Notes: a model not told the origin generated them from the letters alone. Numbered from the stretch's first letter, positions 14,310-53,828 are shown. The stretch is 64,000 bases of DNA from Anaerolineae bacterium (GCA_049974845.1 JBNGCP010000002.1:47127-111126), one strand, 5' to 3'. Made by a program: numbers and translations.

Positions 14310-14373
14310 GATAGGAGATGAGAAGAAGCGAGGCAACGCTGCGGCGCAACGCTACTCCTTACTACCCTACTCC

Positions 14374-14910
14374 CTACTCCTGCTGATGGCTGAAGGCCGT
14401 GAACCCCAACTCCTTGTACCAGTCGACGTCATTGCCGGTGGCGTAGCAATAGATGCGGTCCTTCTGGGGCCCGCCCAAGAGCCGGTAGACGGGCTGCTCC
14501 AGCAGCTTGCCCTTGAGGTCCCATAGCGCCAGATCGATGGCGCTGATCGCATAGGAGGCCAGACCTGTCGATCCGTAAGGCTTGGTCATCCGGAACATCA
14601 TATCGGCGAGCTTATCCGTCGCCAGGCAGTCCTCACCCACCAGCTGCGACGCCAGGTGCTCGACAACCGGCGTGACCACCTCGGCGGAGCTCAGCGTGCC
14701 CAGCCCCCACGTGCCGTCCTCAGCCACGACCTGAACCCAGGCACCTTCCCACCGCGGTAGCCACAGACTGCGGTGCCGCTTCACCTTGGCGTAGCGTGAC
14801 ATGGGGTTGGCGACCTCGGCCCCCGCCGCCCAGCGGGGCCGTCGAGGCATCGTGCGGCTCTCCTTTGACGGTAGGTCAACTCGAACCGTACGGATGTCCG
14901 TGATCTTCAT
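14374..14910 (-). pseudogene. Truncated enolase-superfamily (mandelate racemase/muconate lactonizing enzyme) gene: N-terminal capping domain only
   Basis: MKITDIRTVRV...AISAIDLALWDLKGKLLEQPVYRLLGG is homologous to the N-termini of the intact enolases at 25514 and 39813. It ends after about 179 aa, against about 380-410 aa for intact members. The 3' end abuts the araC stop across a short microrepeat. Confidence 0.55.
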
Positions 14911-14929
14911 AGATACCCTCCCCTCATCA

Positions 14930-15076
14930 CTATTCGGTTGAGCGCGCTTCTGCAATCATCGCCTGCCGCGCCCGCAGCTTGCGTTCGACCTGACGGCGAC
15001 GCCAGGCAATGGAAACCGCCAGGCCCAGCGGGACAGTACAGAAGATCGCGTAGGCCAGGCCAAGATGGATCAGCAT
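14930..15076 (-). CDS. ccmD: Haem exporter protein CcmD (small single-TM protein)
   Basis: Not in the ORF track. A 48-codon ORF, ATG 2 nt after the ccmC stop with GGAGGAGG upstream. MLIHLGLAYAIFCTVPLGLAVSIAWRRRQVERKLRARQ: one TM helix followed by a basic tail, typical of CcmD. Confidence 0.6.
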   Translation of the reverse strand: MLIHLGLAYAIFCTVPLGLAVSIAWRRRQVERKLRARQAMIAEARSTE

Positions 15077-15078
15077 CG

Positions 15079-15777
15079 CTACACCTCCTCCCGCGTTAAG
15101 ACGTCATCCAGTGCCGCCAGTCGATCCCGAGCACGCTCCAAGGCGATGCGTTGCCGGAGCAGGGCCCCGTAGACGAGGGTAAAGGCCGCGATTGCAGCCA
15201 GGAGTGTGTGGAGCATGCGGGGCGTCAAGGCCATCTCTCCGCCTGCCAGAATCTGCGGATGTATCGTGCGCCACCACCGGATCGCAAACCAAGAGAGCGG
15301 GACGGTGACGAAAGCGAGCACACCGTAGACGGCAGCAAAGCGCGCGACCCGTTCCCCGTGCACCGTCGACGCGCGAAGCATCACATAAGCCACGTAGAGC
15401 AACCACTGCACCGCGGAGATCGTCAATCGGGGCTCCCATGTCCAGTACGTGCCCCAGACAGGCTTGGCCCACAAAGAACCTGTGACAACGGCCATCGTGA
15501 TAAAGGCAAGCCCGATCTCTGCGGAGGAAAGACTGAGGATGTCCCACTGCCGGCGTCCCTGCACAAGGTAGAGCACGCCTGCGACGAAAGTCACGAAGAA
15601 CGCAAAGAAACCGATCCACGCGGAGGCGACGTGGAAGTAGAAGATCCGCTGTATCTCCCCCATCGTCGCCTCGCGCGGCGCATAGGCAAAGACCATCACC
15701 AGAGCCACAGCAAACGCAGCGACACTGACAATGCTCAATAACCGGCCTGCCAACTGCTCTGGTCGCCTGCTATCCAT
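15079..15777 (-). CDS. ccmC: Haem exporter protein CcmC
   Basis: WWD domain WGTYWTWEPRLT, conserved His-containing loops, about 6 TM helices. GGGAGG RBS. Confidence 0.9.
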   Translation of the reverse strand: MDSRRPEQLAGRLLSIVSVAAFAVALVMVFAYAPREATMGEIQRIFYFHVASAWIGFFAFFVTFVAGVLYLVQGRRQWDILSLSSAEIGLAFITMAVVTGSLWAKPVWGTYWTWEPRLTISAVQWLLYVAYVMLRASTVHGERVARFAAVYGVLAFVTVPLSWFAIRWWRTIHPQILAGGEMALTPRMLHTLLAAIAAFTLVYGALLRQRIALERARDRLAALDDVLTREEV

Positions 15778-15856
15778 AGAACCTCCCAGCGCTCACGCTG
15801 CTCACGCAACGCGCGCTCAACCACCGCTCCGGGAATCCGCATCGATCATGACTTCC

Positions 15857-16528
15857 CTAGACCTCCACGACATATTCGAAGGTGAGCACCGAGACAGCCG
15901 TCATGACCAAATCGTAGACCACCAGAATCCGTATCCAGGCGCCCATCTCCCCCAATGGCAGCCCCTCCAGCAGCCCCGCCGTGGCTCTGGCAGCCGCGAT
16001 CAGCAGGGGAACCACGAGCGGCAGCAGGAGAATCGGCAACATCACCTCTCTGGCCCGCGTGTTGACAGCGATCGCAGCGAGCAGTGTACCGACCACAGCA
16101 TAACCAATCGTCCCCAGGACCAGCACCCAGATAATTCCTGCCCTGATCAGGCTGATGTTGAAGAAAACCGTTCCCAGCGGCAGGAGGACGATTTCCACAA
16201 GGAACATCAGAACCAGGTTGCCCAGCGCTTTACCAAAGAAGATCACGATGCGATCCGCCGCCGCGAGCAACAACCCGGACATGCCTCCACTGTGGTGCTC
16301 TCGGGCCATCGACCGGCTGAGGCCAAGCGTCCCGGAGAAGGCAATCGTCGTCCAAAGAACGCCCGGTGCTGCAGCCTTTCCAGCGGCCCCACGAAGATCG
16401 AGCGCAAAACTGAAGCTGAGGATCGCGATGATCGCGAAGACGAACATAGCGCTCAGGATCTCCCGGGTGTGGAGTTCAGCAGCTAGGTCCTTGTGCACGA
16501 TCGCGCCGATCTGACGGAGGCTATCCAT
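15857..16528 (-). CDS. ccmB: Haem exporter permease CcmB
   Basis: CcmB-like 6-TM permease, 223 aa from the internal Met (MDSLRQIGAIVHKDL). The longer ORF-track start would overlap ccmA by about 90 nt. Confidence 0.8.
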   Translation of the reverse strand: MDSLRQIGAIVHKDLAAELHTREILSAMFVFAIIAILSFSFALDLRGAAGKAAAPGVLWTTIAFSGTLGLSRSMAREHHSGGMSGLLLAAADRIVIFFGKALGNLVLMFLVEIVLLPLGTVFFNISLIRAGIIWVLVLGTIGYAVVGTLLAAIAVNTRAREVMLPILLLPLVVPLLIAAARATAGLLEGLPLGEMGAWIRILVVYDLVMTAVSVLTFEYVVEV

Positions 16529-17285
16529 CGTGTCCCCGCTCAGCGAAGCCACGCGAGGAAAGGGGCTCGCGCAGCAGCTCCCGATACCGGGCAGGAAAGG
16601 CCGCGGCATCTCCCAGCGACTCGTCGGTGATGATCCGACCCCTGCGCAAAACGATCACCCGCTCGGCCAGTCGCCCCTCGGCAGCCGGTTGATGGGTGGT
16701 CAACAGCAGCGTGCAGCCTGCGTCCACCAGCTCTGCGAGCAACTCAGTAAGGGTATCGACCGCGAGCGGATCCAACCCTGTGTAAGGCTCGTCTAGAAGC
16801 AGCAGCCTCGGCTTATGGATCAGCGCCCGCACGACGGCGAGGCGCTGCTGCATCCCGCGCGAAAACGTCCGAACCAGATCGTGGCGACGTCCCTCCAGCC
16901 CGACGCGGGTCAACAGCCCATCAATCCCGGCATGTTCCGGCGCCAACCCATACATCGTGGCGTAGAACCGCAGATTCTGCCACGCGGTGAGATCGTCATA
17001 GAGGAGCGTCTCGTGCGAGACGAAGCCGATCAACGAACGCACCTGCCCTCCCGCCACCCCAGGGTCCAAGCCGGAGATCCGCACGGTCCCGGCAGTGGGG
17101 CGGCTCAGCGTCGCCAGAATGCGCAGCAGCGTAGTCTTACCGGCGCCATTGGGACCGACGAGCATCACGCGCTCGCCCTCCTCGATAGCGAGGTCGACCC
17201 CGGCAAGCGCGACGTGAGGGCCAAAACGCTTCTCCAGCCCGTGGACCCGGATCACACGTGGCGGCCCTCCGCCCGACCCATCCAC
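16521..17285 (-). CDS. ccmA: Haem exporter ATP-binding protein CcmA (ABC ATPase)
   Basis: Walker A GPNGAGKTT, ABC signature FSRGMQQRL, Walker B LLLLDEP. Confidence 0.9.
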   Translation of the reverse strand: MDGSGGGPPRVIRVHGLEKRFGPHVALAGVDLAIEEGERVMLVGPNGAGKTTLLRILATLSRPTAGTVRISGLDPGVAGGQVRSLIGFVSHETLLYDDLTAWQNLRFYATMYGLAPEHAGIDGLLTRVGLEGRRHDLVRTFSRGMQQRLAVVRALIHKPRLLLLDEPYTGLDPLAVDTLTELLAELVDAGCTLLLTTHQPAAEGRLAERVIVLRRGRIITDESLGDAAAFPARYRELLREPLSSRGFAERGHDG

Positions 17286-18248
17286 TTACTCGCGACCACA
17301 CGACACTCCGCACTCATCCCAGCCCCCGCCGCCAACGTAATCCTGCAGCCGAGCTTTGAGCGCCTGCCGCTCCTCCAGATACGCGGCCTCTGACACCTCA
17401 CCCGCAGCATACCGCACGTCCAATTCCGCCATCGCCGTCACCGCCCGTCTTGCGCCCTCCGGCACGCGAGGAAGCGGCGGCGACCGCCAGAGCATCGCCG
17501 CAAGCCCTGCCCCGGCCAACACGGCGCCGGTACCCACAGCGATCTCGATCCCCACGGGAGGGCCTGCCGATGCTGCCACGGGACGCGCCTCCATTCCCTC
17601 GGCAACGGCACCAGAAGCGGGCGATCCGGGCACGAGCTGAAAGGCGACCGCCTCGCCGGCGGCAAGCGGATCGCCCCTGTAGGCGACCGCCGTCTGCCCC
17701 CCTACCTCCATCGGACCCATCGACGTCAGCCCCGGCCCCTCAAGCTGCCAGGCCTCGCCGACCAACAGGATCACGATGGAATGCACCGCCAGCGGAACGG
17801 TGCGGGAGATGGTTTCACGCGGCACCAGAGGCAGATCGTAGAGGAACCGCGTCTCCACCGTCCCGACCCCAGGCGAGATCGGTCGCGTGTCCGCAATAGA
17901 GTTCGCGCCAAGCCGGTATCGGTCGGGGGCCTCCGCGCTCTCGTCGACCCTGACGTTGGTAGCCTCCCTAGGCAGCGAGAAGACGACGGTCACGCCCTCC
18001 CCCGGGCCCTCTGACAGGCCAGTGTAGACCGTATCCCCGGTGTTGCCCAAAAGATAGTACTCAGATATCGTCAGGGTTTCCTCAGCCGGAAAGAGAAAGA
18101 GGTGCAACTGATCGATCACCGGGCCGCCATCGGGTTGCGGCTGGGCGAGGGTCGGCTGTCCCGTGCGTGCGCCGAGAAACCCAACGATCAACAGCACCAG
18201 ACCGGCCCATCGCAGACGGTGGAGACGAGAGGACCTATCCCGCTGCAT
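17286..18248 (-). CDS. Hypothetical membrane-anchored protein (signal peptide/anchor, extracytoplasmic domain, C-terminal TM and SHOCT-like tail) embedded in the ccm operon
   Basis: Hydrophobic N-terminus, Gly/Ala-rich TM near the C-terminus, then ELDVRYAAGEVSEAAYLEERQALKARL (SHOCT-like). Its stop abuts the ccmA start. Confidence 0.5.
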   Translation of the reverse strand: MQRDRSSRLHRLRWAGLVLLIVGFLGARTGQPTLAQPQPDGGPVIDQLHLFLFPAEETLTISEYYLLGNTGDTVYTGLSEGPGEGVTVVFSLPREATNVRVDESAEAPDRYRLGANSIADTRPISPGVGTVETRFLYDLPLVPRETISRTVPLAVHSIVILLVGEAWQLEGPGLTSMGPMEVGGQTAVAYRGDPLAAGEAVAFQLVPGSPASGAVAEGMEARPVAASAGPPVGIEIAVGTGAVLAGAGLAAMLWRSPPLPRVPEGARRAVTAMAELDVRYAAGEVSEAAYLEERQALKARLQDYVGGGGWDECGVSCGRE

Positions 18249-18254
18249 CCCGAC

Positions 18255-18515
18255 CTAGTCCTCCACCAGCCGAGCCCCGCAGTGGGGACAGTATCGGTGC
18301 TCGGGTTTGACCGGCTGGCCACATTGGTGGCAGAAGCCAGCCGAATCGACAGCGGCCGCGCGTCCTTCGCCCTGCTGCAGCGCACGTCGCTCGCGCGCGA
18401 CCCACGCCTCGATCAGAGCGTCGGCGTCCGTCGTTCCGCGACGAAAGGGCAACGCTACGTAGGCCGTCAGCACGATCAGCGTCCCCACCCCAATCAGCAG
18501 CGCCCCAATAGTCAT
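18255..18515 (-). CDS. Small membrane protein with C-terminal zinc-ribbon (CxxC...CPHC), embedded in the ccm operon
   Basis: N-terminal TM helix. FCHQCGQ...YCPHCGARL four-Cys ribbon. Confidence 0.5.
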   Translation of the reverse strand: MTIGALLIGVGTLIVLTAYVALPFRRGTTDADALIEAWVARERRALQQGEGRAAAVDSAGFCHQCGQPVKPEHRYCPHCGARLVED

Positions 18516-18520
18516 CGTCT

Positions 18521-20989
18521 TCAGTCTCCCAGGAGTGAGTCCAACTGCGCTGTCAGCTCCACCTGTGACACCGCGCCCACGTACACTGCCGCCACCTGTC
18601 CCTGAGCATCGATCACGAAGGTCTCCGGAACCTTGGTGACGCCATAGGCCTGGGCCGCAAGGTCGGAGGCATCAAGTCCGATGGGATAGCTCAATCCATA
18701 GGCCGACGCGATCTCCTCGACCGCCGCCCTGTCCGAATCGTAGGCAACACCCACGAACACGACACCCGCGCCCTGGTACGCTTCCCAGGATGCCTGCAGA
18801 TCAGGTAGCTCGTCCTTGCAGGTGGGGCACCAGGGAGCCCAGAAGTTGAGCACGACGACTTGTCCTCGCAAGTCGCTCAGCGCCAGCGCGTCCCCGCTCA
18901 GCGAAGAGAGCCGAAACTCGGGCGCCGCGTGACCGACGTGAGGGCGACCCAACGCCTTCACAGCCGTCCCGTGCCGCGCGCCCCACATCGCCCAGGCGCC
19001 CCCCGCCAGCAAGCCCACGATGACCATCGCAGCCACCGCGTTCCACGCGCCGGCAAGCCCCCTGGGCCAGAGCGCCAGCGCGCCGCCTGCCAGGAACACG
19101 AGCCCGCCCAGCCAGAGGAAATTCGCGAGGGCGTTGATCAGGATCCTGACGGTGATCGTCGTGCCGTCGCCACTCCAACCAGCCAGGATCACATAAAGAT
19201 CCTCACGCAGGGCAGGGCGCAGCGCCGGCACCGAGAACGTCTGCTCGTAGTTCTGATAGCGGTTGACCCGTGGCTCCAGCGTGACCAGATACTCATCCTC
19301 ACCATAGACACTGAGGCTGGCCCACGTGCTGAGATGGTCGCCGACCATCTCTTGCGAAAGCAGATCGAACACGAGCGTGTACTCTCCGATCTCGATCGGC
19401 TCGCCGGACGCCATCACCATCTCCTGTTCAAAGGGATAGAGGCGTGTCCCAATGACACCCACGGCCATGAATATCACGCCGAGATGGACGAGATATCCAC
19501 CATACTTGCGCCGCTGCGTCCGCAGCAGGTCCCAGAGCGCGTTCAGAGGCGCGAGATCGGTGCGTCGGCTTCGTTGTGCGACGCCCTCTCCGTACTCAAT
19601 CAGGACGGTCGTCGCGGATAGACCCACCAGCCCAAAGGCGATTAGCGACACCGGTTTGTCAAATCCAGCCACGAGCGCCGCCCCGACCGCCACGAGCGCA
19701 CCGAGGGCAATCAGCCACGCCCGGCGCTTCAGGCGACGCACCGTTGCAGCTGCACGACCCAGGAGCGGGCACACGCCAATGAGCAGGATCAGAAGGGCAA
19801 ACTGCGGCCCGGTGACGCGGTCAAACCACGCCGGACCAGCCTCAAACTGCTGCCCCAACGCCAGATCTGTGATCGTCGGGAGCACGCTGCCCACAAAGAC
19901 GGACAGCGTCAACGTCATAAATACGAGCAACGTGAGGAAGAAGGCGCCATCGCGGGACAGGAGCGGCGGCTCTGAAGATGCAGAGCTGAGGTCAGCGCTC
20001 CGCCACAGGATCAGACCCACGCTGACACCGAGGGATGCCAGAATACCGGCGAGATAATAGCCGCCAAGGTTTGACACCGCGTAAGCGTGGACCGACTGAA
20101 TGGCGCCGCTGCGGGTGGCGAAGGTGCCAAAGAGCACCAGCACGAAGGAGAGAGTCACGAGGACGTAGTTCCAAACCCGGAAGCCGCGTCGTTCCTCCTG
20201 CATGACGGCGCCGTGCAGCAACGCCGTCGTCGTAAGCCAGGGCATCAACCCAGCGTTCTCCACCGGATCCCATCCCCAGTAGCCTCCCCATCCCAGGACG
20301 TCATAGGCCCACCGCATGCCCAGCAACAACCCGAGGCTAAGACCGATCCACGCGACCAAGGTCCAGGGATGGACCACACGGGTCCAGAAGCGATCATTCT
20401 TGGTGATCAGCGCAGCGAGCGCAAAGGCGAACGGCACCGACAGGCCGACATACCCGACGTACATCGCCGGCGGATGGAAGATCATGCCCGGGTGACGCAG
20501 CAGCGGATTGAGGCCCTGACCGTCGGTGAGGGGCCGCGGAAGCTGGGTAAAGGGGTTGGAAAGCCACAGCATCGCCCCGACAAAAAGGGCCCCGATCAGC
20601 CCCAAGACGACCGTCGCCCACGGGATTAGAGGGGCGGCGCGCTCATCACGGATGCGGATGGCGAGCGCCGTGAAGACCGCCTGGAAGAAGCACCATAGCA
20701 ACAGAGAGCCCTCTTGACCGGCCCAGATCGCCGACAGCTTCAAGTAGATTGGCAGGGCTTGCGAGGAATGCTGGGCAACGTAGCGAATGCCGTAGTCTCC
20801 GCTGAGGAAGGCCTCTGTCAAAGCAATAAGGGCCAACCCCAGCAGCGCCGCTGCGCCGTACAGAGCGTTACGGGCGCTCTGCCACCACCTAACGTCTCGC
20901 CGGTAGATGCTGATGGCGCTCGCCAGAGCGCCATAGAGGGTCGCGGCCCACGCCAGGCCACTGAAGACCGTCCCGAGGTCCGCTAACAC
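18521..20989 (-). CDS. ccmF: Cytochrome c-type biogenesis protein CcmF fused to a C-terminal TlpA/CcmG(DsbE)-like thioredoxin domain
   Basis: CcmF WWD motif WGGYWGWDPVENAGLMPW over a multi-TM body of about 650 aa. C-terminal roughly 170 aa carry VVLNFWAPWCPTCKDELP (thioredoxin CxxC). The chosen GTG start at 20989 sits 1 nt after the ccmE stop with GAGGA upstream. The alternative ATG at 21055 overlaps ccmE by 64 nt. Confidence 0.85.
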   Translation of the reverse strand: MLADLGTVFSGLAWAATLYGALASAISIYRRDVRWWQSARNALYGAAALLGLALIALTEAFLSGDYGIRYVAQHSSQALPIYLKLSAIWAGQEGSLLLWCFFQAVFTALAIRIRDERAAPLIPWATVVLGLIGALFVGAMLWLSNPFTQLPRPLTDGQGLNPLLRHPGMIFHPPAMYVGYVGLSVPFAFALAALITKNDRFWTRVVHPWTLVAWIGLSLGLLLGMRWAYDVLGWGGYWGWDPVENAGLMPWLTTTALLHGAVMQEERRGFRVWNYVLVTLSFVLVLFGTFATRSGAIQSVHAYAVSNLGGYYLAGILASLGVSVGLILWRSADLSSASSEPPLLSRDGAFFLTLLVFMTLTLSVFVGSVLPTITDLALGQQFEAGPAWFDRVTGPQFALLILLIGVCPLLGRAAATVRRLKRRAWLIALGALVAVGAALVAGFDKPVSLIAFGLVGLSATTVLIEYGEGVAQRSRRTDLAPLNALWDLLRTQRRKYGGYLVHLGVIFMAVGVIGTRLYPFEQEMVMASGEPIEIGEYTLVFDLLSQEMVGDHLSTWASLSVYGEDEYLVTLEPRVNRYQNYEQTFSVPALRPALREDLYVILAGWSGDGTTITVRILINALANFLWLGGLVFLAGGALALWPRGLAGAWNAVAAMVIVGLLAGGAWAMWGARHGTAVKALGRPHVGHAAPEFRLSSLSGDALALSDLRGQVVVLNFWAPWCPTCKDELPDLQASWEAYQGAGVVFVGVAYDSDRAAVEEIASAYGLSYPIGLDASDLAAQAYGVTKVPETFVIDAQGQVAAVYVGAVSQVELTAQLDSLLGD

Positions 20990-20990
20990 G

Positions 20991-21470
20991 TCAGTCCTCG
21001 ACCTGCTCGGGAAGATCCTCAGCGTACTTGGAGGGACACTTAAGAAGGAGATCATCCGCGTAGAAGATGCCGTCCGCCCTCAACTGACCGCGGACAATCG
21101 CTTGCGCCTCGCTCTTGAGGAGATCAGGCTTTACCCCATCATAGGTGACCTGCAGTCGCGATCTGGATGGATCCTGAACCGCAGTACGTAGAACGCCGGC
21201 AAGCCCATCCGCCGCCTCGATCGCCTCAAGATCCCCCGGTATCTGTACCATCGTGAAGGTGACCCGGGGCGCGCTCTGATCATACTCAATGGTCTCGCCG
21301 ATGACAGCACCGGAGACGGTGAGCCTGCGCCCTTGCGCATCGGCACCTAACGCCTCAAGCTCCTCAATCGTCATGAAGAAGCTCGCGGTGCTTCCCGTGT
21401 TGCTGGCTATCAGGTAGATCACCGCAGTAATGATGAGAACACCTGCGATGAGGAAACTGCGTTTCTGCAT
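20991..21470 (-). CDS. ccmE: Haem chaperone CcmE, archaeal-type variant with CPSKY (Cys) haem-binding motif
   Basis: N-terminal TM anchor, OB-fold region (RLTVSGAVIGETIEYD...RVTFTM), and C-terminal KCPSKYAE in place of the canonical HxxxY. Confidence 0.8.
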   Translation of the reverse strand: MQKRSFLIAGVLIITAVIYLIASNTGSTASFFMTIEELEALGADAQGRRLTVSGAVIGETIEYDQSAPRVTFTMVQIPGDLEAIEAADGLAGVLRTAVQDPSRSRLQVTYDGVKPDLLKSEAQAIVRGQLRADGIFYADDLLLKCPSKYAEDLPEQVED

Positions 21471-21742
21471 CAAACACACTCCATCACCACGATATCAGTC
21501 GAATCAGGAAAAGCCCTGCTCGATCGCAGCCTGTATCAGGATACACGAGTAGTATACGAGTGTCACCCGGTGAGGCAACCTGCTGTTCGGGCTAGGGCAG
21601 TCGCAGTTGGCACCAAAGCGCCATCGGCATGACGAAGGCAAAGGTGCTGAACCTAGCTGCGATGATCCTCCCCTCAGCCTGGAACGCTAGTCTGGCACAC
21701 AGTACGCATGCAGAATAGCGTAGATAAGTGTATACTTAATAG

Positions 21743-21988
21743 GAGAAACATGAGCACGTCACCATCTCCGTGGAATACGACAATCAAGGTGTGCATCTAC
21801 GGATCGCGGATGACGGTGTCGGGTTCGTCCCGGCTTCGCACGGGGACGCCTACACACGCCAGGGACACTTCGGCCTTGTCGGTCTTCAGGAGCGGGTGCG
21901 TCAACTCGATGGCACCTTTGATTTCAGCACCGAGCCTGGCGAGGGAACCGTCCTCGACGTCTGGCTGCCCGATCATTCGTCATCGTGA
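21743..21988 (+). pseudogene. Remnant of a NarL/HisKA_3-type sensor histidine kinase (HATPase_c C-terminal domain only)
   Basis: In-frame ...VTISVEYDNQGVHLRIADDGVGF...GHFGLVGLQERVRQLDGTFDFSTEPGEGTVLDVWLP (G1/G2 boxes). It begins right after an in-frame stop. There is no dimerisation/His domain upstream and no response-regulator gene nearby. Confidence 0.55.
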
Positions 21989-42366: not shown

Positions 42367-42681
42367 ATGGAGCGTCAGAAGGAAGTGCTGCAGAGGGAAC
42401 TTGACGAGCTCGAAGAGCAGATTACAGGTCTCGAGGAAGCTCTGCAGGTGAAGCCGGACTATGGTATGGGCAAGGGCGACCCCGCCGTCACGCAGTGGGA
42501 GCTGGATCAAGCGATGTTGGAGCGGCTCCGGGGACACGCCGATAAGTTACGCCAGGCCCTGGCTCGCCTGGACGAGGGCACCTACGGGATCTGTGAGCGT
42601 TGCGGCAAGCGTATTGATCCCAATAGGCTCGCCGTTCTGCCGGACACGACGCTGTGTGTGGAGTGCGCGCGAAAGGGATGA
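42367..42681 (+). CDS. DksA/TraR family C4-type zinc-finger protein
   Basis: Coiled-coil N-terminus then CERCGKRI...CVECA four-Cys finger. GGAGGAAGGA RBS. Confidence 0.75.
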   Translation: MERQKEVLQRELDELEEQITGLEEALQVKPDYGMGKGDPAVTQWELDQAMLERLRGHADKLRQALARLDEGTYGICERCGKRIDPNRLAVLPDTTLCVECARKG

Positions 42682-53183: not shown

Positions 53184-53828
53184 TCACCGGTTACCCTCGC
53201 CCTGACGATTGATGCCGTGCTCGGCTTTGATGCGCTTGAGCCGAAAGAGCTCTTCGCGCTCTCTCTCCTCTAGGACGCTCTCGATATAGTCGACCCGCTC
53301 TTCATATTCCAGTATGAAGACATGCTCCAACGCGTTGACCCTGCGTTGTGTTTTCTGTAGCTCCCTTGCCAGGCGCCACACCGTCGTGATCAGCTCCGCC
53401 AGCTCCGGTATCTCATCAAGCACATTACGAAAGCGAGTGGCTGCTTCATCAAGGGAGACCGTCGTGTTCCCCATTCCGTACGGGATTTCGGGAGGGGCGC
53501 CCTTTGCTGATACCTGTGGCACCGGAACGCCCATTATGCTACTGAGTCTGACCTCGACCTCGGTAGTCTTGTTCACAGAGAGAGCAGCCCATACCAGGTG
53601 CTCGCGACCCATGACGAGCCGCGCCAGCTGCAACGCGTCATATGCATCTGCCAGCAACTTCTCAACCCTAGAGCGCATCCTCCGCGCATCATCAGCAACC
53701 CGCAGAAGCTCACTGGTCAAGACTTCGCGCTTTCGGTCGAGGATGTCGTGCCCCTCCCTGGCCAGCTCCAAGGTCTCACGGGCACGGATCAGGTTGCTCT
53801 TTGTCGGCGCGACTGACCACTGACTCAT
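53184..53828 (-). CDS. atpD: V/A-type ATP synthase subunit D
   Basis: Coiled-coil [37 protein letters not shown] and later conserved D-subunit pattern. Overlaps atpB by 4 nt. Confidence 0.8.

Follow-up and report, generated by a model that had tools for sequence, protein, structure and literature searches.

System I of cytochrome c maturation is known in a variant, System I*, in which CcmE is of the Cys type and CcmH is optional (Allen 2006 FEBS Lett; Goddard 2010 JBC; Stevens 2011 review, PMC3601427). Reports of it come from delta-proteobacteria, Chloroflexi, Firmicutes and archaea, and the archaeal version has been described separately (PMC9084895). About a third of the bacteria with System I* have CcmH; its absence is frequent but not defining (PMC3601427). 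For Desulfovibrio and Methanosarcina, functional systems are reported that consist of CcmABC(D)EF, with CcmI or without it (PMC3601427, PMC9084895). The release of haem from the CcmE thioether has been flagged as chemically puzzling, and bioinformatics had revealed no compensatory System I* component (PMC3601427).

The DNA analysed here, a 64-kb stretch from an Anaerolineae bacterium referred to as the window, contains eight co-directional ORFs on the minus strand (14930-21479). Their order is ccmE, ccmF::thioredoxin, an 86-aa Zn-ribbon gene, a 320-aa gene, and ccmA-B-C-D. The features of the locus are as follows.

21538..21578, minus strand: promoter-like region 5' of ccmE, with two overlapping sigma-70-like hexamer pairs
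20991..21470, minus strand: ccmE, Cys-type haem chaperone with an N-terminal membrane anchor (Pfam CcmE 73.9 bits, 1.4e-20)
18521..20989, minus strand: ccmF fused to a C-terminal CcmG/ResA-like thioredoxin (Cytochrom_C_asm 3.8e-34, CcmF_C 7.7e-41, TIGR00353 397 bits)
18540..18937, minus strand: thioredoxin domain of the CcmF fusion, with WCPTC (AhpC-TSA 2.8e-28, Redoxin 9.3e-25, ResA NF002854 5.3e-31)
18255..18515, minus strand: 86-aa membrane Zn-ribbon protein, reduced CcmI-N-terminal-like, here named CcmI' (Zn_Ribbon_1 33.2 bits)
17286..18248, minus strand: 320-aa bitopic membrane protein (no Pfam or NCBIfam match)
16521..17285, minus strand: ccmA, ABC ATPase (TIGR01189 141.5 bits, cut-off 131.6)
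15857..16528, minus strand: ccmB (Pfam CcmB 2e-26)
15079..15777, minus strand: ccmC (TIGR01191 2.3e-35; Cytochrom_C_asm 1.3e-30)
14930..15076, minus strand: ccmD, 48 aa, single helix (TIGR03141 1.6e-5, 24.9 bits, cut-off 25.95)

The genes overlap or are separated by 0-6 nt, except for a gap of 79 nt between ccmB and ccmC. The start and stop codons of the 86-aa and 320-aa genes are tightly coupled with those of their operon neighbours, and the ccmA start codon directly follows the stop codon of the 320-aa gene. The ccmE ORF reaches a GTG at 21479, and its probable start is the ATG at 21470, which gives 159 aa and matches L001 and L002. By comparison with relatives, the ccmF ORF (18521-21055) probably starts at the GTG at 20989 to give 822 aa, as in L002. 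The ccmB ORF, which extends to 16609, probably starts at Met28 (16528) to give 223 aa, as in relatives. Pfam and NCBIfam matches make the System I* set of CcmA, B, C, (D), E and F complete; ccmD scores 1 bit below its cut-off but is syntenic, since an ORF of 48-53 aa lies 3' of ccmC in all relatives compared. The same gene order was found in two closely related Anaerolineae MAGs and in relatives at 25-28% identity. A chance arrangement is excluded, because the eight-gene order recurs in independent MAGs and dozens of genomes. The eight ORFs, their family matches and the recurring synteny confirm the initial annotation of a variant System I operon whose CcmE is of the Cys type.

The CcmE motif (...LLLKCPSKYAEDLPEQVED) sits 13 residues ahead of the C-terminus. 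CcmE carries KCPSKY, in which CPSKY replaces HxxxY, and so belongs to the Cys type of System I*; the earlier description of a protein ending in KCPSKYAE was right about the Cys motif but not about its very C-terminal position. The operon thus falls into System I*, a known variant. It shares with published systems CPSKY in place of HxxxY, the CcmABCD/E/F set and an order that begins ccmE-ccmF; CcmH, which is dispensable or absent in System I*, was not found in the 64 kb. Unlike these systems, for which nothing beyond CcmABC(D)EF and an optional CcmI, H or G has been described, most sampled bacterial operons hold an extra conserved gene pair, and in the window the thioredoxin is fused to CcmF. 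The combination of a Cys-type CcmE with no CcmH is not new, because it has already been published as System I*; the gene pair conserved in these operons is so far unannotated.

HMMs built from relatives found no CcmH, CcdA or TPR-CcmI in the 64-kb window (E<=10), and the absence of CcmH noted at the outset thus holds within it. A CcmH-like gene is also missing from the operons of the nearest relatives L001, L002 and L004-L007. Among 53 Cys-type loci, a CcmH-like CxxC gene was present in 34, 29 of which also hold CcmI'-like and 320-aa family genes; these CcmH-like genes of relatives match NrfF (TIGR03147, 3.4e-10) and bear the RefSeq name CcmH. Neither the 86-aa nor the 320-aa protein gave a Pfam or NCBIfam match to CcmH/NrfF (PF03918, the LRCxxC three-helix domain).

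The thioredoxin domain occupies about residues 707-839 of the CcmF ORF, with AhpC-TSA/Redoxin matching residues 707-830, and is preceded by an extra hydrophobic helix. It resembles CcmG/ResA/TlpA in its matches to ResA and DsbE, its WCPTC and its own preceding membrane helix, and differs from them in being fused to CcmF and in having no CcdA or DsbD reductant supplier within the window. The fusion was also found in L001 and L002, and probably occurs in L008 and L040, judged by ORF lengths of 825 and 828 aa. In most relatives the thioredoxin is encoded by its own gene, between ccmH and the Zn-ribbon gene.

The distribution of the gene pair was examined in the 80 genomes nearest by CcmF, counting loci whose flank extended at least 3.5 kb. 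Among 53 such loci of the Cys type, 43 carry the pair between ccmF and ccmA, the 320-aa family lying downstream of ccmF; none of the 4 His-type loci does, these four being the only informative His-type loci in the sample. Co-occurrence with Cys-type ccmE, as the initial annotation had suggested checking, was thus observed; the 320-aa family is missing from the other 10 Cys-type loci. The pair was found in Chloroflexota, Bacillota, Acidobacteriota, Planctomycetota, Thermodesulfobacteriota and Eisenbacteria, and it keeps the ccmF-ccmA slot in at least six phyla, at identities of 23-45% and with different flanking genes. A metagenome scan that started from the family found adjacent ccm genes in 20 of 24 contigs. 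All family members are labelled 'hypothetical protein' in RefSeq. The proposal that the two genes are lineage-specific is not supported, given this spread, and close relatives were found to carry both. As candidate Ccm components, on the other hand, they fared well: the kept slot and the association with Cys-type CcmE make it very likely that they are genuine Ccm-associated components.

The 86-aa protein consists of an N-terminal hydrophobic helix, followed by ALPFRR and a Zn ribbon (PF13240, 33.2 bits against a cut-off of 25) with two CxxC knuckles. Its cysteines C62, C65, C76 and C79, in the CxxC...CxxC ribbon context, are invariant in six homologues, and are predicted to be cytoplasmic from their position after the helix and a positively charged stretch. 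Longer members of the family bear ELDFDxxxGKIxxEDY. CcmI (TIGR03142) was the top NCBIfam match in 16 of 43 family members, with a best E value of 1.9e-6, although every score falls below the curated cut-off of 29.3 bits. In the reverse direction, the family HMM matched canonical CcmI or CcmH-CcmI proteins (L075 1.2e-14, L080 2e-11, L054 6.6e-9, L066 9.8e-8), over the membrane-helix and loop region of proteins that bear TPR_CcmH_CycH or Ig_CycH. On these profile matches, we consider the Zn-ribbon family a divergent homologue of the CcmI N-terminus, which comprises the first membrane helix and the cytoplasmic loop. The initial statement that CcmI is lacking is therefore correct for TPR-CcmI but not for this divergent homologue of the N-terminal module. 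The window copy, judged by its sequence, has lost the central CcmI-loop motif, and it gave no TIGR03142 match at E<=0.1; this, with the sub-cut-off scores of the family, speaks against a split CcmI.

The 320-aa protein has a signal/anchor helix, a beta-sandwich ectodomain (about residues 40-210), a membrane helix (236-255) and a cytoplasmic helical tail. The tail carries the motif LD-x5-G-x6-Y-x3-R, whose residues L276, D277, G283, Y290 and R294 are each 83-95% conserved in 225 sequences, and the family HMM cross-matches Zn-ribbon-family ORFs. This tail had been called SHOCT; SHOCT (PF09851) gave no match to the window copy at E<=0.01, and was matched by 10 of 59 homologues (GvpG by 14 of 59), with a weak match in the L001 orthologue. 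Among the same 225 sequences, only N69, P93, P126, G127 and A96 of the ectodomain reach at least 92% conservation, with H49 at 84% and Y190 at 85%. No conserved Cys or His was found in the family; the core is free of Cys in 175 of the 225 members, and the window ectodomain has none. A scaffold or chaperone fits better than an enzyme or thiol reductase, because residues of the kind needed for chemistry are not conserved. N-terminal cytochrome c domains, mono- or dihaem, occur in about one third of the family; they hint at a redox role that a chaperone model leaves unexplained.

The ectodomain, modelled at pLDDT >90, was confidently modelled as a beta-sandwich of the ribophorin I/OST1-like fold. 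Ribophorin I, too, has no catalytic role in its complex, a membrane enzyme that modifies unfolded polypeptides translocated by Sec. The 320-aa protein shares with ribophorin I/Ost1 of the eukaryotic oligosaccharyltransferase an extracytoplasmic (there luminal) beta domain, one membrane helix and cytosolic helices. It differs in having only 10-14% sequence identity, at which homology is unproven, and ribophorin I belongs to another enzyme in another domain of life and has two luminal domains; Pfam Ribophorin_I matched neither the protein nor its family members. The modelled likeness is not proof of polypeptide binding.

Taken together, operon position, co-occurrence with Cys-type CcmE, homology to CcmI, a natural gene fusion, the modelled fold and the lack of conserved Cys or His form the basis on which we regard it as fairly probable that the pair is a split, TPR-less CcmI that assists the CcmF haem lyase as an accessory subunit. 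The pair would thus probably replace the usual CcmI helper subunit. CcmI is built of a helix, a cytoplasmic segment, a helix and an ectodomain (PMC3884852), and P0025 (459 aa), in which a Zn-ribbon protein is naturally fused to the N-terminal side of a 320-aa family protein, gives the same topology. Canonical CcmI/CycH proteins (R. capsulatus, P. aeruginosa, the C-terminal half of E. coli CcmH, NrfG) share with the pair an N-terminal helix followed by P-[FL]-[RL]-R and a location beside ccmF and ccmH. The motif L-[DE]-x5-G-x6-Y-x3-R is common to canonical CcmI (L054, L066, L075, L080), long Zn-ribbon members and the 320-aa tail. Unlike CcmI/CycH, the pair is encoded by two genes and adds a cytoplasmic Zn ribbon, a third membrane helix and a tail. 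No TPR or Ig_CycH match was found in the 86-aa protein, the 320-aa protein or 59 family members, whereas canonical CcmI of His-type loci does match these models.

In the mechanism that we propose, CcmABCD would load haem onto the CcmE cysteine, and CcmF, to which a CcmG-like thioredoxin is joined here through an additional membrane helix, would attach it to apocytochromes. The 86-aa protein would supply the first membrane helix and cytoplasmic segment of CcmI, ending in the Zn ribbon. The 320-aa protein would supply the second membrane helix and the extracytoplasmic domain, in which a ribophorin I-like beta-sandwich takes the place of TPR repeats; beyond this domain it adds one more membrane helix and, on the cytoplasmic side, a tail with the CcmI-loop motif. 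The membrane and cytoplasmic parts of the pair may dock on CcmF, while the ectodomain may bind unfolded apocytochrome (or holo-CcmE) and keep it at the active site of CcmF, the task of the TPR domain of CcmI in canonical systems. The pair is not universally required, because the Desulfovibrio and Methanosarcina systems were reported to work with CcmABC(D)EF. The 10 Cys-type loci that lack the 320-aa family also speak against a split CcmI.

Other readings of the pair were weighed against the split CcmI. From its position, the initial annotation implied that it replaces the missing CcmH; on this view it would be a thiol-redox or apocytochrome-reducing component peculiar to operons that have lost CcmH, and it does occupy the place of ccmH in other operons, in a window and nearest relatives that have no operon CcmH-like gene. 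The pair does not stand in for CcmH, because most relatives have CcmH too and the 320-aa family has no conserved cysteine; the Zn-ribbon cysteines, moreover, are predicted on the cytoplasmic side. The co-occurrence with CcmH and the lack of cysteine largely refute this reading, to which we give hardly any credence. Scarcely more credible is a pair of unrelated passengers, such as an envelope-stress or regulatory membrane pair in which the Zn ribbon and the SHOCT-like tail would serve for oligomerisation or signalling. Such modules are generic across unrelated membrane proteins, and the Pfam matches are to generic Zn-ribbon families, GvpG and SHOCT; however, the slot conserved in at least six phyla, the tight start/stop coupling, the homology to the CcmI N-terminus and the almost exclusive ccm context in the family-first scan all argue otherwise.

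It seems unlikely, if less so, that the 320-aa family acts chiefly in electron transfer or as a cytochrome scaffold anchored in the membrane, encoded beside the maturation machinery as its client or redox partner instead of being a maturation factor; the window copy would then be a derived form without haem. Among the Chloroflexota members, many are lipoproteins of 600-700 aa in which two CxxCH cytochrome c domains precede the core, Thermodesulfobacteriota members carry one, and multihaem cytochrome genes lie near some loci. Most members, however, including the window copy and all those of Bacillota, Acidobacteriota and Planctomycetota, have no CxxCH, although their position between the CcmI'-like gene and ccmA is unchanged; conservation lies in the haem-free core and the CcmI-like tail, and the window has no CxxCH ORF of at least 100 aa. 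We judge similarly doubtful a System I*-specific factor for Cys-CcmE chemistry, which might assist in making or resolving the thioether between haem and CcmE, or in passing holo-CcmE on to CcmF, rather than chaperone apocytochromes. The strict Cys-type association in the sample and the puzzle of haem release from the thioether with no compensatory component found agree with it, but the association is set against four informative His-type loci only, residues of a catalytic type are not conserved, the minimal System I* sets were reported functional with no extra protein described, and 10 Cys-type loci lack the 320-aa family. There is likewise only a small chance that the pair represents unrecognised System I*-specific subunits of holocytochrome c synthase, a 'compensatory feature' for thioether-haem handover with or without CcmH, shared from Chloroflexota to Bacillota and Acidobacteriota. 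If true, the pair would be a new core component in one of the three major routes of cytochrome c biogenesis.

Upstream of ccmE, the hexamer pairs TTGCCT-16-TATACT and GTGACA-17-TATCCT were found as matches to the consensus only, and region 21538..21578 may function as a promoter of the operon. Positions 21549-21579 are 97% identical to locus L002, while the flanking DNA is about 76% identical.

Profile searches with Pfam and NCBIfam identified eight close-packed ORFs on the minus strand of the window (14930-21479), and confirmed the eight-gene Cys-type ccm operon with two inserted membrane-protein genes that the initial annotation had described.

ORFs of the ccm operon (window coordinates, strand, identity)
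20991-21470/79, minus: ccmE; Pfam CcmE, 73.9 bits; C-terminal end ...KCPSKYAEDLPEQVED
18521-20989/21055, minus: ccmF; Cytochrom_C_asm and CcmF_C, followed by an extra hydrophobic helix and an AhpC-TSA/Redoxin/ResA-like domain with WCPTC
18255-18515, minus: 86-aa protein; N-terminal helix, Zn_Ribbon_1 at 33.2 bits against 25
17286-18248, minus: 320-aa protein; matched by neither Pfam nor NCBIfam
16521-17285, minus: ccmA; TIGR01189 above cut-off
15857-16528/16609, minus: ccmB; Pfam CcmB
15079-15777, minus: ccmC; TIGR01191 and Cytochrom_C_asm
14930-15076, minus: ccmD; 48 aa, TIGR03141 at 24.9 against 25.95 bits

Adjacent genes overlap or are separated by 0-6 nt, except for 79 nt before ccmC. Upstream of ccmE, two promoter-like hexamer pairs (21538-21578) overlap a 31-nt stretch (21549-21579) that is 97% identical to L002, a locus from another Anaerolineae MAG, versus about 76% for the neighbouring DNA. 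This stretch may be a conserved promoter or operator. HMMs built from relatives gave zero matches to CcmH or CcdA in the 64-kb window at E<=10, which bears out, over this range, the absence of CcmH noted initially. An ORF at 53314-53823 with the motif LRCVFC was rejected as CcmH, being Ser-rich, probably spurious and not matched by the CcmH HMM. The window also contained no TPR-type CcmI by the HMM of the family of the 86-aa protein, no ORF of at least 100 aa with CxxCH, no Rfam match, and no more terminator-like sites than expected by chance. A weak match to the Zn-ribbon family, the 104-aa ORF at 42367-42681 on the plus strand, was found to be a DksA/TraR-type C4 zinc-finger protein unrelated to the ccm operon.

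The combination of a Cys-type CcmE with a missing CcmH is not novel, because this operon type is already published as System I*. In this variant, Cys replaces the haem-binding His of CcmE and CcmH is often missing; CPSKY is the majority CcmE motif, carriers include Chloroflexi and Firmicutes, CcmH is present in about one third of the bacteria, and CcmI enhances maturation without being absolutely required (2011 FEBS J review, PMC3601427). In Methanosarcina, CcmABCEF suffices (eLife 2022, PMC9084895). How the Ccm machine uses a cysteine-linked CcmE, often without CcmH, has been an open puzzle since 2006, and bioinformatics had found no compensatory component (PMC3601427). The inserted pair bears directly on this stated question.

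Word-indexed searches with the single proteins gave 3 and 6 relatives, as for a rare lineage-specific gene, and a 59-sequence profile gave 20 matches. That impression was overturned when an HMM from three sequences was run against all 1.84 billion representatives: 2817 sequences passed E<=1e-3 as members of the 320-aa family, 103 of them E<=1e-30. Two loci from other Anaerolineae MAGs (L001 and L002) have the identical eight-gene order with different flanking genes, and a third (L003) is a 1.2-kb contig without neighbouring genes. In four loci whose members are only 25-28% identical (L004-L007), the order is ccmE, ccmF, Zn-ribbon gene, family member, ccmA-B-C-D, then ccdA, and a thioredoxin gene also follows ccmA-B-C-D/ccdA in two of the three distinct loci among them.

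For the association with CcmE type, a CcmF alignment was used to scan 185,579 species genomes, and the 80 nearest loci were kept and annotated with HMMs built for this analysis. Loci were counted only if at least 3.5 kb of sequence followed ccmF, and CcmE was classed as Cys-type when it carried CP[ST][KR]Y, CAS[KR]Y, CGSRY or C...F/M. The 320-aa family was present in 43 of 53 Cys-type loci and in none of the four His-type loci, an association with Cys-type CcmE in this sample. CcmI'-like small proteins (CcmI' denotes the 86-aa protein and its homologues) were found in 47 Cys-type loci and, as canonical TPR-CcmI, in three His-type loci; for CcmH-like CxxC proteins the counts were 34 and four. 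In Cys-type loci the genes run E, F, (H), (G), I', X, A, B, C, (D), where X is the 320-aa family, and in His-type loci they follow the classical ABC(D)EF(G)H(I). Carriers among the 80 loci include many Chloroflexota, Neobacillus species and Bacillus sp. DNRA2, Acidobacteriota (Bryobacterales, Terriglobia, Vicinamibacteria), Planctomycetota (Phycisphaeraceae, Tepidisphaeraceae), Thermodesulfobacteriota and Ca. Eisenbacteria. A family-first metagenome scan, seeded from the 320-aa protein with a narrower alignment (A2), gave 24 loci at 23-51% identity, and ccm genes adjoin the family in 20 of them; of the other four, two are short or fragmentary, one retains a CcmI'-like gene alone, and L109 has no ccmA in its 2.7 kb of downstream sequence. 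The two genes had been proposed as lineage-specific Ccm components: they are conserved operon members, but multi-phylum synteny shows that they are not lineage-specific.

Complete System I* operons were seen in Neobacillus spp. and Bacillus sp. DNRA2 (L028, L030, L033, L038), in the order ccmE (CPSKY), ccmF, ccmH-like, CcmI'-like without Zn ribbon, 320-aa family gene, ccmABC. Since bacilli normally use System II, this operon may be a dedicated second maturation system in Bacillota.

In most relatives, a gap of roughly 1 kb between ccmF and the Zn-ribbon gene holds a CcmH-like gene and a separate ResA-like thioredoxin gene. The CcmH-like protein (...LYCPVCEN...YFVxQYGxRVLxEPP...) matches NrfF TIGR03147 at E 3.4e-10, and its copy in Bacillus sp. 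DNRA2 is named CcmH in RefSeq. In the lineage of the window, ccmH was lost from the operon and the thioredoxin was fused to CcmF. A 479-aa ORF in L004 (7565-9004) joins the C-terminal part of CcmF to a double Zn ribbon, a possible CcmF-Zn-ribbon fusion. It is likely a frameshift artefact, because this long-read contig has many split genes, with ccmA, ccmB, ccmC and ccmF in pieces.

We then aligned 43 proteins occupying the Zn-ribbon slot (alignment A7). The usual CcmI' form begins with a membrane helix that ends in P-[FL]-x-R, followed by the cytoplasmic motif ...L-x-E-L-D-F-D-x3-G-K-I-x2-E-D-Y-x2-Q-R..., a variable linker, an IExxIAxRR-like segment and, at the C-terminus, a Zn ribbon. The ribbon is missing from Neobacillus copies; those of the window, L001 and L002 lack the central motif and keep the helix, PFRR, IEAWVARER and the ribbon. 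The top NCBIfam match was TIGR03142 (CcmI) for 16 of the 43 members, with a best E of 1.9e-6 and all scores below the 29.3-bit cut-off. The A7 HMM matched the membrane-helix and loop region of canonical CcmI/CcmH-CcmI proteins in His-type loci (L075, 1.2e-14; L080, 2e-11; L054, 6.6e-9; L066, 9.8e-8). Three of these four proteins carry Pfam TPR_CcmH_CycH, L080 also Ig_CycH, and L075 has general TPR matches in NCBIfam. By its sequence, the Zn-ribbon family is therefore CcmI-N-terminal-like, and the original statement that CcmI is missing holds only for the TPR part, not for the N-terminal part. An anti-sigma-like regulator was rejected as an identity for the Zn-ribbon protein; its ribbon follows the helix, and neither neighbouring gene encodes a sigma factor.

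Besides a single natural fusion described below, the 320-aa family occurs in three forms. The form of about 300 aa consists of a signal/anchor helix, core, membrane helix and tail; that of about 400 aa adds an N-terminal CarboxypepD_reg-like domain; that of about 600-700 aa starts with a lipoprotein signal and a pair of CxxCH cytochrome c domains, followed by CarboxypepD_reg and then the core, membrane helix and tail. AlphaFold2, given a 21-sequence alignment, modelled the 320-aa protein with a mean pLDDT of 76, predicting an all-beta ectodomain at residues about 40-210 (pLDDT >90), a membrane helix at 236-255 and cytoplasmic helices at 264-281 and 287-307. Among 225 non-identical members, the ectodomain residues conserved in at least 92% are only of structural type (N69, P93, A96, P126, G127), Y190 reaches 85%, and the core lacks Cys in 175. 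H49 and Y137, invariant in 59 sequences and considered as haem ligands, fell to 84% and below 80%, respectively, and such a role is therefore unsupported. The tail motif (L276, D277, x5, G283, x6, Y290, x3, R294) is 83-95% conserved in the same members, and its spacing, read from the sequences, is that of the loop motif of CcmI'-like proteins and canonical CcmI. The family HMM also matches CcmI'-like ORFs, and in 10-14 of 59 members Pfam recognises the tail as SHOCT or GvpG-like. The two proteins are fused in one natural case, P0025 (459 aa), with the Zn-ribbon protein N-terminal; its layout of helix, cytoplasmic segment, helix and ectodomain is the topology of CcmI (PMC3884852).

In many Chloroflexota members, a lipoprotein signal at the N-terminus is combined with a dihaem cytochrome c domain, and members of 600-700 aa were seen in L009, L010, L012, L013, L016, L018, L021, L024, L026 and L035. 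Cytochrome-fused members also occur in L032 and L037; Thermodesulfobacteriota members have one haem motif.

On balance, we favour as the probable explanation that the pair is a split CcmI with a ribophorin-like beta-sandwich in place of the TPR domain. Both proteins would be anchored to CcmF through their helices and cytoplasmic elements, the ectodomain would hold unfolded apocytochrome, or position holo-CcmE, at the CcmF WWD site, and the thioredoxin fused to CcmF would keep the CxxCH thiols reduced. The 320-aa ectodomain resembles ribophorin I, a subunit without catalytic activity that brings Sec-translocated polypeptides to a modifying enzyme embedded in the membrane, but this resemblance is suggestive only. 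Against a split CcmI stand the sub-threshold CcmI scores, the missing loop motif in the small protein of the window, the 10 of 53 Cys-type loci without the 320-aa family, the minimal System I* sets reported to work without the pair, and the cytochrome c fusions, which it leaves unexplained.

Those fusions would suit a cytochrome or electron-transfer scaffold, an unlikely role for a family whose majority is haem-free. That the pair is a factor for the haem-CcmE chemistry of System I* would fit its association with Cys-type CcmE, but no catalytic residues are conserved, and we judge this improbable too. An unrelated passenger or regulator is highly unlikely in view of the multi-phylum synteny. 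A substitute for CcmH, as the CcmH-less window might suggest, is scarcely credible: 29 of 53 Cys-type loci carry both genes alongside CcmH, and no cysteine is conserved across the 320-aa family, and therefore the pair cannot be CcmH surrogates.

The conserved pair of CcmI'-like and ribophorin-like proteins in System I* operons appears to be undescribed so far. Its members are hypothetical proteins in RefSeq and UniProt, apart from one SHOCT domain-containing protein, no Pfam family covers the 320-aa core, and full-text literature searches gave no publication that connects ccmF to proteins of this kind. Most of the bacterial System I* operons sampled contain a conserved, unannotated two-gene module, one half tied to CcmI by profile evidence and the other given a confident predicted fold. 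Its recognition would help to annotate thousands of proteins now called hypothetical (2817 representative clusters). The hypothesis lends itself to direct tests by deletion or heterologous reconstitution, since carriers of the module include cultivable species: Neobacillus cucumis, N. niacini, N. vireti, N. novalis, Bacillus salipaludis and Bacillus sp. DNRA2.

Some relatives encode a further protein of about 300 aa directly upstream of ccmE (L005 3447-4358, L006/L007 1804-2760, L017 8421-9323, L018 69-1019), absent from the window. This protein has a signal peptide, an ectodomain rich in beta structure (WPEYDQP...), a membrane helix and, at its C-terminus, a Zn ribbon. In L034 (4215-5675) it has 486 aa and a duplicated ectodomain. 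It matches the 320-aa family weakly (hhalign probability 63%, E 7e-5), and could represent a distantly related paralogue or a third accessory component.

The flanks of the operon differ from those of L002. At 21579-21752, the window lacks about 2 kb (L002 2946-4965) encoding a GerE-type response regulator and most of a HisKA_3 histidine kinase, of which only a 72-aa HATPase_c fragment ORF remains (21770-21988, plus strand); the cause is a deletion accompanied by gene decay, or else a gap in the assembly. Downstream of ccmD, an enolase-superfamily (MR_MLE) gene (14374-14955, minus strand; 193 aa) retains the N-terminal domain only, and is probably a pseudogene, because about 0.67 kb encoding the C-terminal domain in L002 (12091-12780) is absent at 14366-14391.
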